From Escherichia phage GADS24, in the sequence record OQ703618.1: a stretch of 64,000 nucleotides of DNA. One strand, written 5' to 3'. Made by a program: the position numbers and the translations under genes. Below, piece after piece: positions 1,676-45,354 of the stretch. Positions within the stretch are counted from its first letter, which is position 1; the number at the start of each line of letters is the position of its first letter. The notes under the pieces are model-generated. The model did no database searches, was not told the origin of the DNA, and saw only the letters and a program-made list of their open reading frames with translations.

Positions 1676-1990
1676 TTATTCTTTAGGGAAGTTTTTAGAG
1701 TATGCATCGTAAAGTTTATTACCAATACGGCGGAAGACTTTAGCTGCAAAACGGTTTTCAGGGTTTTTAATCATGATTTGCATCATGTAAGTTCCTGCAT
1801 CCGAAAGAGCTTCTTCATAGTACCCATTAATTTCTTTAAGAGTCCTACGTTTACCACCAGGACCATCAACAGTAATTTTCCATTTACCTGTAGAAGTGCG
1901 GCTCGGTGGCTCAACTTGTTCAATCCAAATATAACCACCTTCAACGCGTTGGTTGGCGGATTCTGCAATAAATTCTTTATACGTTTTCAT
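1676..1990 (-). CDS. internal protein (IP)-like, capsid-targeting N-terminus
   Basis: Begins MKTYKEFIAE; AAGGAAA SD; GTTTAC-18-TATAAT promoter upstream. Confidence 0.65.
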   Translation of the reverse strand: MKTYKEFIAESANQRVEGGYIWIEQVEPPSRTSTGKWKITVDGPGGKRRTLKEINGYYEEALSDAGTYMMQIMIKNPENRFAAKVFRRIGNKLYDAYSKNFPKE

Positions 1991-2018
1991 TTTTGTTTCC
2001 TTGTTTGTTTTGATAAAG

Positions 2019-2051
2019 TAATTATACTATATTAATACTTAAGCGTAAACA
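2019..2051 (-). promoter_or_regulatory. sigma70/T4 early-type promoter (GTTTAC -35, 18 nt, TATAAT -10)
   Basis: Minus strand reads GTTTAC (rc of 2045-2050), 18-nt spacer, TATAAT (rc of 2021-2026); upstream of IP-like gene 1676..1990. Confidence 0.5.
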
Positions 2052-2053
2052 AT

Positions 2054-2314
2054 TTAAGCTTTACCGCCAGAAATAATTCCGAAGTTGTTAAAATCGTATC
2101 CAATATCGTCAACATCTACTTTAGGGCTTGCTACAACATAAGCAATTTCACTACGTTTTGCATAGGTGTTGATTTCTTTACCATCGCCACCTAAGAAAAA
2201 ATACCCATTACGTTTTAATGAGCCAAAGTCTTCCGCATCACCAATGAAAGCTTTAACTTTAAATTTAGGACCTTTGGCATCTGCTTCAGCGATAAATTCT
2301 TGATACATTTTCAT
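2054..2314 (-). CDS. internal protein (IP)-like, capsid-targeting N-terminus
   Basis: Begins MKMYQEFIAE; SD AAGGA overlaps the denV stop. Confidence 0.65.
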   Translation of the reverse strand: MKMYQEFIAEADAKGPKFKVKAFIGDAEDFGSLKRNGYFFLGGDGKEINTYAKRSEIAYVVASPKVDVDDIGYDFNNFGIISGGKA

Positions 2315-2320
2315 TTTTCC

Positions 2321-2734
2321 TTAGTAAATTGATTTACCATAGTATTTGTACCAAGTAGGACGTTGAGCAATTTTTTCATCTAAGCGTGCTTGACTTATCG
2401 CAATGGACGCTTCGGACGGGACATAATTATTACGAAATTCGGCAGGGATGTCGGAAATATCCTGGACAGTCGTGTCCTTGATTTTGAAACCACGTTTCAA
2501 GCATTCAGCGATTAGCTCGATTTGACGTAAACGTAAAAATTCGAGTTTGTCGTAAAAGAATGTTACGTGACCTGTGCCTAAGATAAATGTTGGAGAGATT
2601 TTAAAATCCTTTACACGTTTACCGTTTTGAACATGTTTACGGACTGCACCAAATACGCGTGGTAATTCACGATACTCAGCCATAAGATGTTGGTCGGTCA
2701 GTTCAGAAACAAGTGTTAAATTGATACGAGTCAT
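2321..2734 (-). CDS. denV: endonuclease V (pyrimidine-dimer DNA glycosylase)
   Basis: [12 protein letters not shown]...[19 protein letters not shown]...[10 protein letters not shown] matches T4 DenV; start placed at MTRINL ATG (2732-2734) with GGAGGA SD. Confidence 0.9.
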
Positions 2735-2792
2735 AATTTCCTCCAAGTAGTTGATGAATGTATAGTATCAAAGTCCTTGGAGGAAGTAAACA

Positions 2793-3074
2793 CTATTTTT
2801 CTGAAGCGCCTGAAATATATTTTTCAAGACGTTGTTTCATCAGCGAGCCGTTCTTAGCGATTTCTTCCGGTTTATCGCACATACGCAACAAGGCTTCAAG
2901 CTTAACGATATCGCTGGTACGTTCAAATTTGCGAGTATCTATCTTACTAGCAAGTTCAGAAATACGTGCTAATAGACTTTCGGCTTCAACCAAAGCTGCA
3001 CCTAGCTTAGTTGCAAATGTGTCAGTAGCTTCGTTAAGAATAGATTCTGATAAAAATTCACTATATGTTTTCAT
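2793..3074 (-). CDS. internal protein (IP)-like, capsid-targeting N-terminus
   Basis: Begins [10 protein letters not shown] at ATG 3072-3074, overlapping the e stop (ATGA); ORF track has a 5-codon upstream extension. Confidence 0.65.
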
Positions 3075-3559
3075 ATATACGCTTTCCAAGTTCCTGTTTT
3101 AAATGTTGAGATTACGCGTTTCGCGCGATTAGGTGTCTGACGATACCATTTAGATTGGGCTAGATTTACTGCCGCTTCATCCCAACGTTTCTGTTGAAGC
3201 ATACGAAGAGAATTAGTAAAACCAGCGACGCCTGCTACACCCATTTGGAAGACCATATTGACCAATGCACATCGACGAACCGCATCTAAAGAATCATATA
3301 CCGGTTTAAGTTTAGCATTACCCAAGATTCCGCGAACGGCTTTATCAACGTCTTCATTAAATAGCTTTTCAGCCTCATCAAGGGTAATTGTACCGTTGCA
3401 TTTACGTCCGATCATTCTGTCAAGTTCAGCTTTAGCTACGGCTAAAGACGGGTTCTTTGTTACTAAATGGCCTATGCCAATCGTCCAAAAGCCTTCAGTG
3501 TCTTTGTATAAAGACAGTCTAAGACCTTCGTCATTACGAAGCATTTCAAATATATTCAT
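3071..3559 (-). CDS. e: endolysin (T4 lysozyme, muramidase)
   Basis: [15 protein letters not shown]...TIGIGHL...TGTW near-identical to T4 lysozyme; start at MNIF ATG (3557-3559) with GGGAGG SD. Confidence 0.95.
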
Positions 3560-10425: not shown

Positions 10426-10731
10426 TTAATTTTTCCAACTTAACAACTTGTAGTATCCTTCATTCATACGTGGTTTATCCCAAGAAATACTAATATATGA
10501 TTCACTGTCAATAGAAGTCGCCGGGTTTTTCTCTACCGTAAGACCTTCACTTTCCAGCCATTCAATAGTATTTGCGCATAAATCTGAAGAACACCTAATC
10601 GGAAACCGGCAAGATTTTTCACCTTTAGCTGCAGTGTTATACATCTTTTCTAAAATACGCTTTTGCACGTTTTTAAAAATAGTTTCGGCAGATTCTTCAG
10701 ATTTTTTATTCAGTTCAGTGTAAAGACTCAT
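10426..10731 (-). CDS. hypothetical protein (101 aa)
   Basis: ORF track 10426..10773; start moved to ATG 10729-10731 with CATGAGGAGAATATT RBS identical to that of gene 5454..5759. Confidence 0.5.
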   Translation of the reverse strand: MSLYTELNKKSEESAETIFKNVQKRILEKMYNTAAKGEKSCRFPIRCSSDLCANTIEWLESEGLTVEKNPATSIDSESYISISWDKPRMNEGYYKLLSWKN

Positions 10732-10795
10732 AATATTCTCCTCATGTTTTTTAATAGGACTATAGTAACACATCTAGGGAAGAAGTAAACAACTT
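10732..10795 (-). promoter_or_regulatory. PeSL-like early promoter cassette
   Basis: GTTTAC (rc 10785-10790), 17 nt, TACTAT; TAGGACTATAGTAACA core. Confidence 0.45.
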
Positions 10796-10805
10796 TTTCA
10801 GTAAG

Positions 10806-10838
10806 TTATAAACCCCCTAAAGGGACCCGAAGGTCCCC
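10806..10838 (-). terminator. rho-independent terminator (GGGACC-TTCG-GGTCCC + TTTAGGGGGTTTAT)
   Basis: 6-bp GC stem 10822-10837 with tetraloop; T-rich tail on minus strand, directly after the stop of 10844..11470. Confidence 0.5.
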
Positions 10839-10843
10839 ATTCT

Positions 10844-11470
10844 TTACTTACGAGTTTTTGCATACTGAGCAGCATCAGCAGCCAAACGACCTGCCTGACG
10901 AAGTTTTTCTTTAATCGCATCGTGAAGTGGTTGAGTATACTTCAAACCTTCGATAGTCAAATAAAGACGATAAAGGTCTGGGGTATCAAGGTTGTTGATA
11001 TGTTGACCATTGCGAAGAATATTGAATTCACGAACGAGTGAAGATGTATCGGATTCAATATCACGAACAAGCGAAGATAGTTGTTTATATTTTTTTTCCA
11101 GGCTAGAAGTATCAAACTTAAGAGCAGGAGCTTTAGGAGTTGCTTTTACTTCAGGCTTAGGCTCAGGTTTTGCTATTGCTTTAGGGGTCGCAGGTTTAGG
11201 AACGGTAGGAGCAGGTTTTACTTTAGGCGAACCAGATTTAGCAGGAACACCACCACTAACAATATCTTTGAATGCTTTAGAAGCTCTGTAATATTCTTTT
11301 TGGCTCGAAGTGTCGATACCGTACATGGCTTGAACGTTTTTGAAAAACTCTGTACTAGTTTTTGTACCAGAAATAGCATCATAAGCAGCTCGCCATTTCT
11401 CTTTTGTCATACGTACACCGGCTTCGGTGATTACTTCCGTTTCGGCTAAAAATTCATTAAAAGTATACAT
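10844..11470 (-). CDS. internal protein (IP)-like with capsid-targeting N-terminus and Pro/Ala/Lys-rich linker
   Basis: Begins MYTFNEFLAE; central PKVKPAPTVPKPATPKAIAKPEPKPEVKATPKAPA; late promoter TATAAATA about 36 nt upstream. Confidence 0.6.
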   Translation of the reverse strand: MYTFNEFLAETEVITEAGVRMTKEKWRAAYDAISGTKTSTEFFKNVQAMYGIDTSSQKEYYRASKAFKDIVSGGVPAKSGSPKVKPAPTVPKPATPKAIAKPEPKPEVKATPKAPALKFDTSSLEKKYKQLSSLVRDIESDTSSLVREFNILRNGQHINNLDTPDLYRLYLTIEGLKYTQPLHDAIKEKLRQAGRLAADAAQYAKTRK

Positions 11471-11505
11471 CGATGGTCCTTAGAAAGTAGGTTTATTGTT
11501 TACTA

Positions 11506-11513
11506 TATTTATA
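11506..11513 (-). promoter_or_regulatory. T4 late promoter TATAAATA (minus strand)
   Basis: Plus tatttata at 11506-11513 = TATAAATA on minus, upstream of IP-like gene start 11470. Confidence 0.55.
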
Positions 11514-11544
11514 CAAAAAAAAGCCCCAACCTTTCGGAAGGGGC
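11514..11544 (-). terminator. candidate rho-independent terminator
   Basis: GC-rich imperfect hairpin 11523-11544 followed on minus strand by T8 (rc of A-run 11515-11522). Confidence 0.45.
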
Positions 11545-11574
11545 TATATACCTTGTCGGGGTTTCCACCTACTA

Positions 11575-11740
11575 GGTAAGTGTTTGTACGAAACGCCGGG
11601 ATTTGAACCCGGTTATTAAGTAGTTGACGCTACTCAATATTTTTAAAAGGCCATATCTCGACCATATCCGAACGTTCCGTCAAAAACGCTACTCGGCTTA
11701 CGGCAAAGATATTTCCTCGAATCGTTAATTAGGTGCGCCG
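11575..11740 (-). ncRNA. candidate small stable RNA with tRNA-like T-arm (rnaC/rnaD-like) or tRNA remnant
   Basis: Minus strand carries CCGGG-TTCAAAT-CCCGG (rc of 11596-11612); no canonical D/anticodon arms or 7-bp acceptor stem found by hand; lies 3' of the tRNA genes, where T4 has species 1/2 RNAs. Confidence 0.25.
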
Positions 11741-13871: not shown

Positions 13872-14159
13872 TTACAGAAGAGTTTTTGCAATAATTTTAA
13901 GCTGAGCTACAGAAATATGCTTAGCTTTAAACAGTGCAGTCTCTTCAGCCGGAGAGATAACAATAGTAGCGCCATCTTTCTTAGCAGACCATCCATCCCC
14001 TAAGTAAACAGTACCTTTTACTTCTTCGCCGTCAACCAGACTAATCATTGGTTTACCCTCACGTCCTTTATTTGCTTTAATAACTTCGGAAGTAAGGGTT
14101 GCTTCGGTCAGAGTAGAAACGTTAGCATCAGGTGATATAAATTCTTTATAGGTTTTCAT
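13872..14159 (-). CDS. internal protein I-like (IP with capsid-targeting N-terminus)
   Basis: Begins MKTYKEFIS; 95 aa like T4 IPI precursor; adjacent to 57B as ipI is in T4. Confidence 0.6.
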   Translation of the reverse strand: MKTYKEFISPDANVSTLTEATLTSEVIKANKGREGKPMISLVDGEEVKGTVYLGDGWSAKKDGATIVISPAEETALFKAKHISVAQLKIIAKTLL

Positions 14160-14236
14160 TTTATTTCCTTGAGGTCGTTTATTTGATAGGATGATAGTAA
14201 CACGCCATCATCCTTATGTAAACTGTTTTTGTGAAA
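14160..14236 (-). promoter_or_regulatory. PeSL-like early promoter/stem-loop cassette
   Basis: GTTTAC (rc 14218-14223), 17 nt spacer; inverted repeat GGATGATAG (14189-14197)/CCATCATCC (14204-14212). Confidence 0.45.
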
Positions 14237-14922
<686 letters not shown>

Positions 14923-17215: not shown

Positions 17216-17862
17216 TCAACTTTCCTCATTTTACAATTATCACCATGCCAACGTTTATAAGGCGCAGGTTTACATTCTATACCGCAGTATTGGCATATCT
17301 TATTAGGAGTATTTAAGTATCCTAATCTCATGTTTTCCTTTTCTTCAGGAGTTCTATTTCGTCCTGTAAGAGTATTTTTTATTTTGTCTCTAATCTCTTT
17401 AGGCATTATCCTGCCTCGGCCTGCTTTACCTATTTTAGCTTTATGCTCTTCGGATAATTTCTTACCCTTCTTAGCTAAACTCATTTTCTTTTTAGATTCT
17501 TCGGAAATAGGACCTAATTTTCTACCTCTGGATGAATCGCCTATTCTTTTTCGCACATCAATAGAACGGCCTCGTCCTCCCTTTCCTCCTAGGTCTATAT
17601 TATATGTATCTTCTCTATCCACAAAAGATTGATCAACTAATTCCGCTTCCTTTTGGAAAGCCATTTCTTCATTTAGTAATTCGTCACCGGTATCATACAC
17701 ATATAATACTTCTTTTACAAAATTATCTAATCCGTATTTAGCATGGGCTTTTAAGATAATTTTACCTGTTCCTTTATAAGAATCATCCGGATTATTAGTT
17801 TTATGAACACCTATATAAATTTTATTATTTACGATGTTAGTTATTTTATATACAGTATACAT
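17212..17862 (-). mobile_element. free-standing GIY-YIG homing endonuclease (Seg/I-TevI-like) inserted between genes 2 and 4
   Basis: N-terminus VYKITNIVNNKIYIGVHKT (GIY...YIG); Lys/Arg-rich NUMOD-like repeats; C-terminal Cys/His cluster; T4 has no gene here. Confidence 0.8.
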
Positions 17863-43442: not shown

Positions 43443-43867
43443 TGTATCTTATCCCTGAATCTTATGAATTGGTACTCGAAAATGTCGAAGCACTTATTCC
43501 TGAAGCACAGGGCCGAATCGATGCATTGTCTTCTGCTCTCGATATTGACGATATAAATACTATTATCGAGAACATGCTTGAAACTGAAACGGATTTAGCT
43601 GTTGCAATGGCTTCCATTATTAATGAAGAACAGTTAAATGAGTTTATCGTTAAACATGTTTCTTCTCGTGGTGAAGTCACCCGCACTAAAGACCGTAAAA
43701 CTCGTGAACGTAACGCGTTCCAAACAACTGGTCTTTCTAAAGCAAAACGTAGACAAATCGCTCGTAAGGTCGTTAAAGCTAAAAAAGCTAACCCTTCAGG
43801 CCAAGTTAAAGGCTTGCGTAAGCGTAAAAAAGCTCTTAAACGTCGTAAAGCATTAGGATTAAGCTAA
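43442..43867 (+). CDS. 68: prohead core protein gp68
   Basis: 141 aa, basic C-terminus. Confidence 0.8.
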
Positions 43868-44508
43868 TGAATAAACCCGAGTTACTTATTGAAACTTGGG
43901 GTCAACCTGGTGAGATTATTGATGGCGTTCCAATGTTGGAATCTCATGATGGAAAAGATTCTGGCTTAAAACCAGGGCTTTATATAGAAGGTATTTTTCT
44001 TCAGGCAGAGGTTGTTAACCGAAATAAACGTTTATATCCTAAACGTGTTTTGGAAAAAGCCGTAAGCGACTATATTAAAGAACAAGTCGCAACCAAACAA
44101 GCCCTTGGAGAATTAAATCATCCACCTCGTGCAAATGTTGACCCTATGCAAGCCGCTATCATTATTGAAGATATGTGGTGGAAAGGAAACGATGTATATG
44201 GACGTGCTAGAATTATTGAAGGTGACCATGGCCCCGGCGATAAATTAGCTGCTAATATACGAGCTGGTTGGATTCCAGGTGTTTCCTCTCGTGGTCTTGG
44301 TTCTTTAACCGACACCAATAAAGGGTACCGTATCGTGAACGAAGGATTTAAATTAACCGTCGGTGTAGATGCCGTATGGGGTCCTTCTGCTCCAGATGCT
44401 TGGGTTACTCCTAAACAAATATCAGAATCAGAAAATTCGGTGGAAATCACCAAAAACAGTGCTGACGAAGCATTTAAAGCTCTCGCAGAGAGTTTAAAAG
44501 CATTATAA
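43867..44508 (+). CDS. 21: prohead core protease gp21
   Basis: 213 aa, position before scaffold gene. Confidence 0.9.
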   Translation: MNKPELLIETWGQPGEIIDGVPMLESHDGKDSGLKPGLYIEGIFLQAEVVNRNKRLYPKRVLEKAVSDYIKEQVATKQALGELNHPPRANVDPMQAAIIIEDMWWKGNDVYGRARIIEGDHGPGDKLAANIRAGWIPGVSSRGLGSLTDTNKGYRIVNEGFKLTVGVDAVWGPSAPDAWVTPKQISESENSVEITKNSADEAFKALAESLKAL

Positions 44509-44541: not shown

Positions 44542-45354
44542 ATGATCAAAGAACAACTTTTGAAAGAAGCTCAGAACATCGAGACTTCAGTTGCTCTTAA
44601 TAGTGTTTTCGAATCAGTAGAACTGTCTCCGGACGTTAAAGCTAATTTCAGCACTGTATTCGAAGCCACCGTTAAGCAGGAAGCAGTCAAACTGGCTGAA
44701 TCTCATATCAAAGCCATCGCCGAAAAGGCCGAAGAAGAAGTTGAAAAGGCTAAAGAAGATGCTGAAGAGAAAGCTGATAAAAAATTGGCTGAACAAGCTT
44801 CTAAATTCCTGGACCATCTTGCAAAAGAATGGCTCGCAGAAAACCAAATCGCAGTTGATAAAGGCATTAAAGCTGATTTGTTCGAATCCATGCTTGGTGG
44901 TCTGAAAGAACTGTTTGTTGAACATAACGTTGTTGTTCCAGAAGAATCTGTAGATGTTGTAGCAGAAATGGAAGAAGAGCTGGCCGAACATAAAGAAGAA
45001 ACCGCTCGTTTGTTCGAAGAAGTTACCAAACGTGATGCATATATCAATTACGTTCAGCGTGAAACCGCTATTAATGAAAGCGTAAAAGACCTGACTGAAT
45101 CTCAGAAAGAAAAAGTTATTGGCCTGGTTGAAGGTATGGATTATTCTGACGCATTTGGTACTAAGTTAACTGCTATTGTAGAAATGGTTAAAGGTTCTAC
45201 TAAAGAAGAAGCCGCTATTACCGAAAGTATAAATACAGTTGACAATGACGCTGCCGGTCTTAATTTTGTTGCCGAAGCAGTTGACACTACCACAACTCAG
45301 GTAGAACAGAATTCTAATGTAAGTTTATATGCGAAAGTCGCATCTCGTTTCTAA
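44542..45354 (+). CDS. 22: prohead scaffold core protein gp22
   Basis: 270 aa, highly acidic and helical. Confidence 0.9.
   Translation: MIKEQLLKEAQNIETSVALNSVFESVELSPDVKANFSTVFEATVKQEAVKLAESHIKAIAEKAEEEVEKAKEDAEEKADKKLAEQASKFLDHLAKEWLAENQIAVDKGIKADLFESMLGGLKELFVEHNVVVPEESVDVVAEMEEELAEHKEETARLFEEVTKRDAYINYVQRETAINESVKDLTESQKEKVIGLVEGMDYSDAFGTKLTAIVEMVKGSTKEEAAITESINTVDNDAAGLNFVAEAVDTTTTQVEQNSNVSLYAKVASRF
45228..45235 (+). promoter_or_regulatory. T4 late promoter TATAAATA inside 3' end of gene 22 (candidate P23)
   Basis: Exact TATAAATA about 137 nt upstream of gene 23 ATG. Confidence 0.4.

Follow-up and report, generated by a model that had tools for sequence, protein, structure and literature searches.

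What is encoded by a gene that stands, in a T-even-type phage, at a site where T4 has none? The question is raised by a minus-strand open reading frame (ORF) of Escherichia phage GADS24 (OQ703618.1), of which we analyzed a stretch of 64,000 nucleotides (nt), here called the window. The window is that of a T-even-type phage of the genus Mosigvirus, similar to JS09 and mar005P1. The ORF (positions 10844 to 11470, minus strand, stop codon included) specifies 208 amino acids (aa) and begins with MYTFNEFLAE, as the initial annotation had stated. Position 11470 is the first start codon past the in-frame upstream stop, and a Shine-Dalgarno sequence, AAGGA (11477 to 11481, minus strand), lies 6 nt 5' of this ATG. 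The 951-bp region around the gene is 97 to 99% identical to that of phages JN02, TU01, mar005P1, JS09, and G2469. The protein matches PHROG 2280, a family of unknown function (E = 2e-57), and we predict it to be an internal head protein precursor, that is, the gene probably encodes a previously unnamed T-even internal head protein that is made late, targeted, trimmed by the prohead protease gp21, packaged, and injected. It very probably belongs, as a new member, to the internal proteins, a known class that evolves fast, and is not the counterpart of T4 IPIII.

The N terminus carries much of this argument. Any protein that bears the first ten residues of T4 IPIII (MKTYQEFIAE) can be loaded into the prohead core; within the T4 capsid-targeting sequence, residues 4 and 7 serve targeting and residues 8 and 10 serve processing, and gp21 cleaves after the Glu of L/I-X-E (PMC9026906). 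The 208-aa ORF has F4, F7, L8, and E10 at these positions, and the earlier description of MYTFNEFLAE as a variant targeting sequence agrees with the T4 rules at all four. Residues 1 to 16 (11423 to 11470, minus strand) form a capsid-targeting-like propeptide, MYTFNEFLAE-TEVITE followed by A17, with two gp21-type sites, L8-A9-E10 and I14-T15-E16. E10 is at least 90% conserved in alignment A2, and E16 is invariant in alignment A1.

We compared the locus with those of phages JS98 (Dhakavirus), PG7 (Karamvirus), Marfa (Marfavirus), fHe-Yen9-01 (Tegunavirus), CBH8 (Winklervirus), EcS1 (Kagamiyamavirus), Kosakonia phage 305 and IME523 (both Kanagawavirus), and RB69 (Mosigvirus). In nine loci and in the alignment, F or Y occupies position 4, and position 7 holds F, replaced by I in the Marfa group. 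The N terminus as a whole is conserved as M-x-x-[F/Y]-[N/K]-[E/D]-[F/I]-[L/I]-x-E, even where overall identity falls to 33%, and the second site, [I/L]-x-E-[A/S] at residues 14 to 17, is invariant and resembles ITE-A of the T4 IPI propeptide. Near-canonical motifs are present in the orthologs of JS98 (MKTYNEFLNE) and RB69 (MKTYAEFLTE). A six-frame scan of the 64 kb for the pattern M-x-T-[YFW]-x-[ED]-[FYL]-[ILVM]-x-E gave just four occurrences, all of them the true starts of minus-strand ORFs (93 to 208 aa), against a chance expectation that we ourselves estimate at about 0.005. One of these four ORFs belongs to a PHROG annotated as "internal head protein," and ipI represents a fifth case, with a longer propeptide. 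The three additional canonical targeting-sequence ORFs (1321 to 1650, 1676 to 1990, and 2793 to 3074, all on the minus strand) flank denV, the site of ipII and ipIII in T4; the first two are paralogs assigned to PHROG 3966 ("unknown function"), and the third is assigned to PHROG 3499 ("internal head protein").

The same N terminus might be displayed by a late cytoplasmic protein that is never packaged, as a by-product of recombination carrying cassettes of promoter, ribosome-binding site, and 5'-coding sequence from one hyperplastic-region gene to another. Conserved regulatory cassettes, together with the 5' ends of genes for internal proteins, mediate the shuffling of T-even variable genes (PMC4122927), and the N-terminal motif is degenerate at positions 2, 3, 5, and 9. 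However, the critical positions 4, 7, 8, and 10 are exactly those conserved over genera, while the surrounding DNA has diverged. This contrast points to selection on the peptide itself, and we consider the recombination explanation quite unlikely.

When is the gene expressed? An exact match to the T4-type, gp55-dependent late promoter, TATAAATA, lies at 11506 to 11513 (minus strand), with the ATG 35 nt further on; the initial annotation had reported the octamer at this position. The octamer is overrepresented in the window, with 19 occurrences versus 8.3 ± 2.8 expected, and none of 100 shuffled sequences reached 19. Its ATAAATA core is found 35 to 44 nt 5' of the ATG in all nine loci (eight genera), four of which have the full octamer, and the intergenic DNA of the nine loci is unalignable apart from this core. 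The base before the core is T in four loci, G in four, and C in one; RB69 has A. T4-like late promoters consist of TATAAATA at -13 to -6, with -13 being the least conserved position (PMC1524935; PMC2988020), and the variation of the octamer among loci falls at this tolerant position. Since the motif spans -13 to -6, the transcript is predicted to start at about 11500, matching the earlier proposal, and to have a 30-nt leader. The site upstream of RB69 ORF149c is not listed in the late-promoter supplement of Nolan 2006. Among the targeting-sequence genes of the window, only the 208-aa gene is directly preceded by an exact late promoter, and this promoter stands right behind a terminator, whereas the others stand behind early-type promoters. 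Promoters of the early type (GTTTAC...TACTAT or TATAAT), not TATAAATA, precede ipI (stretch 13872 to 14250, minus strand) and a 104-aa targeting-sequence ORF (stretch 1990 to 2080, minus strand).

The terminator upstream of the late promoter is a hairpin with the arms AGCCCC and GGGGCU around GAAA (11522 to 11545, minus strand), followed by U8 (11515 to 11522). A simple terminator scan flagged neither of the two minus-strand hairpins that border the gene, the downstream stem being flagged on the plus strand only; both were therefore assessed by folding. The upstream hairpin folds at -16 kcal/mol (z = -3.3), and none of 200 shuffled sequences folded as well; together with U8 it is a canonical intrinsic terminator, and it is annotated as a terminator in G2469. 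A comparable hairpin was clear in five of the eight other loci folded. Its counterpart also follows rnaC in T4 and RB69. Because T4 has this hairpin without having the 208-aa gene, the terminator is an insulator of the gene, not a part of it; by this comparison, it ends the tRNA/rnaC unit and would shield the 208-aa gene from early read-through.

Gene order places the 208-aa ORF precisely. On the minus strand, and named by comparison with T4, the order is 57B, ipI (13872 to 14159; 88% identity to T4 IPI), trna.4, trna.3, and trna.2, the genes for tRNA-Met and tRNA-Arg, one ORF, and rnaC, followed by the terminator, the 208-aa ORF, small early genes, and e.6 and e.5. Both rnaC and the terminator recur in T4 and RB69, and in T4 a spacer of about 150 bp and then the e.8 early promoter follow, with no intervening gene. 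Relative to T4, the alignment of these regions thus identifies the 208-aa ORF as an insertion between the rnaC terminator and the early promoter.

The downstream border is marked by a stem-loop, GGGACC-UUCG-GGUCCC (10822 to 10837, minus strand), located 6 nt past the stop codon. Its folding energy (-12.9 kcal/mol; z = -1.0) is not unusual for its composition, and no U-tract follows it in the window (UUUAGGGGGUUUAU). A hairpin past the stop codon is nonetheless kept in eight of the nine loci, with arm sequences that differ via compensatory changes, and the hairpins of PG7 and IME523 are canonical terminators. The stem-loop of the window is probably a 3' mRNA stabilizer or a weak terminator. Hairpin terminators had been proposed on both sides of the gene; the upstream one proved to be canonical (U8, z = -3.3), and the downstream one, lacking the U-tract and having a z of -1.0, did not.

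Beyond the stem-loop, an early-type promoter, (G)TTTACT-N16-TACTAT (10762 to 10790, minus strand; TTTACT at 10789 to 10784, a 16-nt spacer, and TACTAT at 10767 to 10762), serves the next gene (ATG at 10731) and forms the downstream border of the cassette. A homologous early promoter precedes e.8 in T4 and RB69. Promoter-early stem-loop (PeSL) elements, with the consensus TTTACW...TAYWAT, have been tied to insertions and deletions (indels) in hyperplastic regions (PMC4122927). The downstream side of the 208-aa gene has the PeSL succession of stem-loop, early promoter, and start of the next gene. It thus resembles the PeSL cassettes, which mediate the shuffling of modules among T4-like phages (Arbiol 2010; Comeau 2014), in its downstream stem-loop and TTTACW-N16/17-TAYWAT promoter, and also in being an indel relative to T4 that maps between the terminator hairpin and the early promoter. 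The upstream border differs, consisting of a stem-loop with a late, not an early, promoter, an arrangement not described in PMC4122927. The sequence TAGGGGGTTTA stands right behind the downstream stem-loop (10809 to 10819, minus strand) and at the same spot in JS98 and Marfa; its counterpart in CBH8 is TTCGGGGGTTTA, with the surrounding DNA otherwise diverged, and it may belong to the PeSL-type element. The layout of terminator, late promoter, ribosome-binding site, ORF, and hairpin, in this order, is conserved across genera. Together with the N-terminal motif, this conserved layout lends good comparative support to the earlier suggestion of an autonomous, late-expressed cassette whose product is packaged into the head.

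An AlphaFold model built from a 41-sequence alignment divides the protein behind the propeptide into two helical domains joined by a disordered linker. The N-terminal three-helix domain (residues 17 to 74; 11249 to 11422, minus strand) has predicted local distance difference test (pLDDT) values of about 81 to 88 and a conserved sequence of the form ERMTK-KW...YGI-T...YYK...AFK. Its modeled part comprises residues 23 to 72 (pLDDT of about 85), and it is common to both C-terminal types, A and B, described below. Residues 75 to 117 (11120 to 11248, minus strand; VPAKSGSPKVKPAPTVPKPATPKAIAKPEPKPEVKATPKAPAL) make up the basic Pro/Ala/Lys linker, a low-complexity segment already noted in the initial annotation, in which 12 Pro, 8 Ala, and 9 Lys occur among 43 residues, with a net charge of +7. 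The model has residues 75 to 112 disordered (pLDDT < 50). Among the 41 homologs, the composition and charge of the linker (+3 to +9) are kept, while its length (23 to 50 aa) and sequence vary. After removal of the acidic propeptide, the predicted mature protein would have 21 to 22 kDa and an isoelectric point (pI) of 9.7 to 9.8 (for residues 17 to 208, 21.3 kDa, pI 9.84, and a net charge of +15); T4 IPIII* has a pI of 9.65 and a net charge of +10. The 208-aa protein would thus share the small, basic mature form of the T-even internal proteins.

Low-complexity sequence rich in Lys, Ala, and Pro is a feature of the C-terminal tails of histone H1. The linker resembles these tails, and also TonB spacers, in its P, A, and K composition, its positive charge, and its extended disorder; what it shares with them is composition only, not homology. 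The latter resemblance bears on a further explanation, in which the protein is a TonB-like, envelope-spanning protein whose proline-rich spacer bridges the periplasm. An NCBIfam TonB model indeed matches residues 76 to 121 (E = 0.0048), yet its score of 16.8 bits is far under the 315-bit cutoff, the match is limited to the low-complexity linker, and the protein has no TonB C-terminal domain. Neither a signal peptide nor a hydrophobic segment is present (the maximal 19-residue Kyte-Doolittle mean is 0.34), and the missing membrane anchor effectively refutes a TonB-like role. Nuclear magnetic resonance (NMR) has shown that lysines of internal proteins contact the phosphates of packaged DNA (PMC3012670). 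Because of these contacts and its own charge, the linker may by analogy be a DNA-contacting tail.

The C-terminal three-helix domain (residues 118 to 208; 10847 to 11119, minus strand) is the putative effector domain. It is modeled with high confidence (residues 122 to 206, pLDDT of 93 to 98) and contains the strongest motif of the family, LRNGQxINNLDTPDLYxLY, which sits in a loop and at the start of the second helix. Foldseek searches with this domain against PDB and BFVD gave no significant relative outside the family, and a search of its profile against PDB sequences gave only matches with E values of >0.29 (e.g., the CdtA N-terminal domain), which we regard as noise. Against 1.84 billion representative proteins, the profile gave 12 matches, with eight family members or fragments, two distant paralogs (P0054 and P0059), and one repeat-protein artifact. 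It also matched, weakly, two stand-alone proteins of about 100 aa (E of about 1e-5) from unrelated, phage-like metagenomic contigs. These proteins (P0057 and P0058; L013, 286 to 591) have no targeting sequence and carry the motif NNLDTP.EY; a PF23148 Gp77-family gene and an acetyltransferase gene are their neighbors. None of the profile matches offered a function that could be carried over to the domain. Scans of Pfam, NCBIfam, and Rfam yielded nothing meaningful (SIX1_SD, E = 0.19; NsiR1, E = 0.37; and TonB on the linker only).

How widely is this architecture distributed? With tblastn, the family was found in 138 phage records, and every record seen reads "hypothetical protein." A search of 5.8 billion proteins yielded only about 50 cluster representatives, each from a T4-like phage context. 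By these searches, members of this small family occur solely in T4-like enterobacterial phages, in at least nine genera, and at one syntenic site: in every locus compared, the gene sits past the tRNA cluster and ahead of e.8/e.6. At this site, the domains are exchanged. In IME523 and its relatives (Kanagawavirus), the propeptide, N-terminal domain, and linker are kept and are joined to an unrelated C-terminal domain, IPGLKVRGKYGS...LSYNA, and this type B allele (L007, 2001 to 2627) is found, between the same flanks, at the locus that holds the type A allele in Kosakonia phage 305. The type B alleles P0042 to P0052 have a C-terminal domain ending in LSYNA or LSYTI. Conversely, fHe-Yen9-01 gp153 and P0054 have a different N-terminal domain joined to a related C-terminal domain. 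The gene for gp153 (MLEYSEFLKE..., with the TPDLY motif; L006, 3080 to 3616, plus strand) lies directly downstream of the fHe-Yen9-01 homolog, so that this homolog and the distantly related gp153 form a tandem pair of targeting-sequence proteins. In RB69, ORF149c and ORF148c (L012, 7430 to 7991, minus strand) look like one divergent allele split by a frameshift, with the N terminus MKTYAEFLTE..., a short linker, and a helical C terminus; this allele is either a pseudogene or the result of a sequencing error in the RB69 reference. The occurrence of alleles with a swapped C-terminal or N-terminal domain at one locus would fit the arms-race shuffling of an injected effector.

The window also encodes the proteins with which a packaged protein would interact. 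By tblastn, gp21 (43867 to 44499) is 88%, gp22 (44542 to 45351) is 77%, gp68 is 81%, and gp23 is 95% identical to its T4 counterpart, and the machinery for loading and trimming is thus essentially that of T4. A different role for the 208-aa protein would be that of an accessory scaffolding or core protein like gp67 or gp68, which would be targeted to the prohead core, would aid assembly there with its long helices, and would then be degraded or expelled instead of being injected. The targeting motif and the late promoter suit a core protein equally, core proteins being made late and being gp21 substrates (PMC9026906), and the C-terminal domain is a long-helix bundle with one weak BFVD match (E = 0.7) to a scaffolding protein. 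However, cleavage turns gp22, gp67, and gp68 into many fragments (PMC9026906), whereas the 208-aa protein has only three L/I-X-E motifs, of which two are in the propeptide and one is in a predicted helix (residues 186 to 188). Moreover, T4 and many relatives lack the gene, and its C-terminal domain is swapped between close relatives, which is atypical of an assembly component that fits a core as conserved as this one. We therefore regard a scaffolding role as unlikely.

The reading as an internal head protein leaves the question of which internal protein it might correspond to. The initial annotation had suggested IPIII, and an ortholog or direct counterpart of T4 IPIII that has diverged beyond easy recognition would be in keeping with several resemblances: the precursors are of similar length (208 versus 193 aa), the mature charge is basic in both, the N termini are of the same type, a weak common x-K-[DE]-x-W stretch is found just past the propeptide, and the window has no recognizable IPII or IPIII. 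The homology is nevertheless missing. Alignment to T4 IPIII by BLASTP covers residues 1 to 26 only, and comparison of the two family profiles with hhalign gave a probability of 24%, for a match confined to the first 43 columns. PF26861, which is present in all IPIII homologs, was not found in the 208-aa protein by a Pfam scan, and IPIII has no Pro/Ala/Lys-rich linker. The loci differ as well, with the 208-aa gene lying between rnaC and the gene at the e.8 position and ipIII lying between denV and e; in the window, the interval between denV and e (2734 to 3077) holds a different, 93-aa targeting-sequence protein. Finally, fHe-Yen9-01 carries both an IPIII ortholog (P0070) and a member of the 208-aa family, which argues against a simple replacement of IPIII. 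A direct correspondence to IPIII is thus very improbable. A loose, purely functional analogy may hold; the predicted mature size and charge are similar to those of IPIII, and the window has no IPII or IPIII ortholog.

T-even internal proteins are diverse, and only the targeting sequence is common to them (PMC3012670; PMC9026906). The 208-aa protein is like T4 IPI, IPII, and IPIII in its decapeptide (an aromatic residue at position 4, Phe at 7, L/I at 8, and Glu at 10) and in its small, basic predicted mature product. Its gene likewise lies in a hyperplastic region, beside tRNA genes and ipI, is polymorphic between close relatives, and occurs in a genome with gp21 and gp22. It is unlike them in having no sequence or profile similarity past the propeptide region, in belonging to a two-domain family with a Pro/Ala/Lys linker of 23 to 50 residues, which the T4 internal proteins lack, and in its location between rnaC and e.8, a site empty in T4. 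What is new here, as sequence comparisons support well, is a putative, so far unannotated member of the T-even internal proteins at a T4-empty locus, with an unusual domain-swapping architecture of two domains and a basic linker.

On the preferred reading, RNA polymerase with gp55, gp33, and gp45 would, after the onset of replication, initiate at TATAAATA (about 11500) and produce a monocistronic late mRNA bounded by the rnaC terminator upstream and the stem-loop downstream. The 208-aa precursor would be recruited through its N-terminal decapeptide (F4 and F7) to the gp22 scaffolding core of the prohead, where gp21 would cut the acidic propeptide after E10 and/or E16 (L-A-E and I-T-E), leaving a product of about 21 kDa with a pI of 9.8 and a charge of +13 to +15. 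The sequence rules of T4 strongly suggest these three steps, late initiation, core targeting, and gp21 cleavage. More speculatively, the mature protein would stay in the head with its lysine-rich linker on DNA phosphates and would be ejected with the DNA into the next host. There, some host component might be the target of its C-terminal domain (NNLDTPDLY), which would most likely serve as a first-response counter-defense factor like IPI, which inhibits GmrSD restriction, and IPIII, which is required to infect Escherichia coli ECOR17.

Several points weigh against this reading. The motif is looser than that of T4, with Tyr or Leu instead of Lys at position 2, and position 3 is not Thr in several homologs (MLNF, MLKF, and MLQY). 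The other targeting-sequence genes of the window have early-type promoters, and a late promoter is consequently no hallmark of the class. The downstream element in the window is not a canonical terminator. Searches of the literature on phages that carry the gene yielded no usable virion proteomics, late-transcript, or cleavage data. The paper on the Karamvirus ECLFM1 names extra virion bands only as "hypothetical proteins," and the preprint on the Mosigvirus AV110 contains no time-course data. The proteome of the Jiaodavirus ValerieMcCarty has no matching peptides; this genus has no homolog among the matches listed.

The host meets internal proteins before any other phage proteins, and the two with known roles help T4 to beat host defenses. 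A widely distributed, unannotated family with exchangeable C-terminal domains would represent a candidate list of new counter-defense factors and would also act as a determinant of host range in phages of the genera Mosigvirus, Dhakavirus, and Karamvirus under development for therapy. About 130 GenBank records that read "hypothetical protein" could become "putative internal head protein," and the natural targeting variants (MYTF.., MLNF.., and MLKF..) could broaden the sequence space for T4-based protein-packaging vectors.

We also put forward, tentatively, a broader proposal to which we assign less weight than to the internal head protein reading, namely, that injected proteins of this family are built on a modular "carrier plus warhead" plan and are encoded at a previously unrecognized fourth internal-protein locus. 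The propeptide, the small helical N-terminal domain, and the histone-tail-like basic linker would form a conserved delivery module that travels into and out of the head with the DNA, and the swappable C-terminal domains (type A, NNLDTPDLY; type B, IPGLKVRGKYGS...LSYNA; and the variants of RB69 and fHe-Yen9-01) would each neutralize a different host defense. If this is true, the family would be a phage analog of polymorphic toxin/effector architectures, with its own stem-loop/late-promoter cassette.

Two further observations concern the surroundings of the gene. The window rnaC (11587 to 11725, minus strand) is nearly identical to the small stable RNA rnaC (species 1 RNA) of T4; it carries a tRNA-like GGTTCAAATCC T-arm and is placed between the tRNA genes and the terminator. 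It gave no match to an Rfam family and no ARAGORN call, and phage G2469 annotates a 42-aa coding sequence over its copy, which is probably a misannotation. A stretch at 17575 to 17862 (minus strand) shares 48% identity with the first 90 residues of SegB, a T4 homing endonuclease (GIY-YIG), and sits apart from the tRNA region, which is the location of segB in T4.

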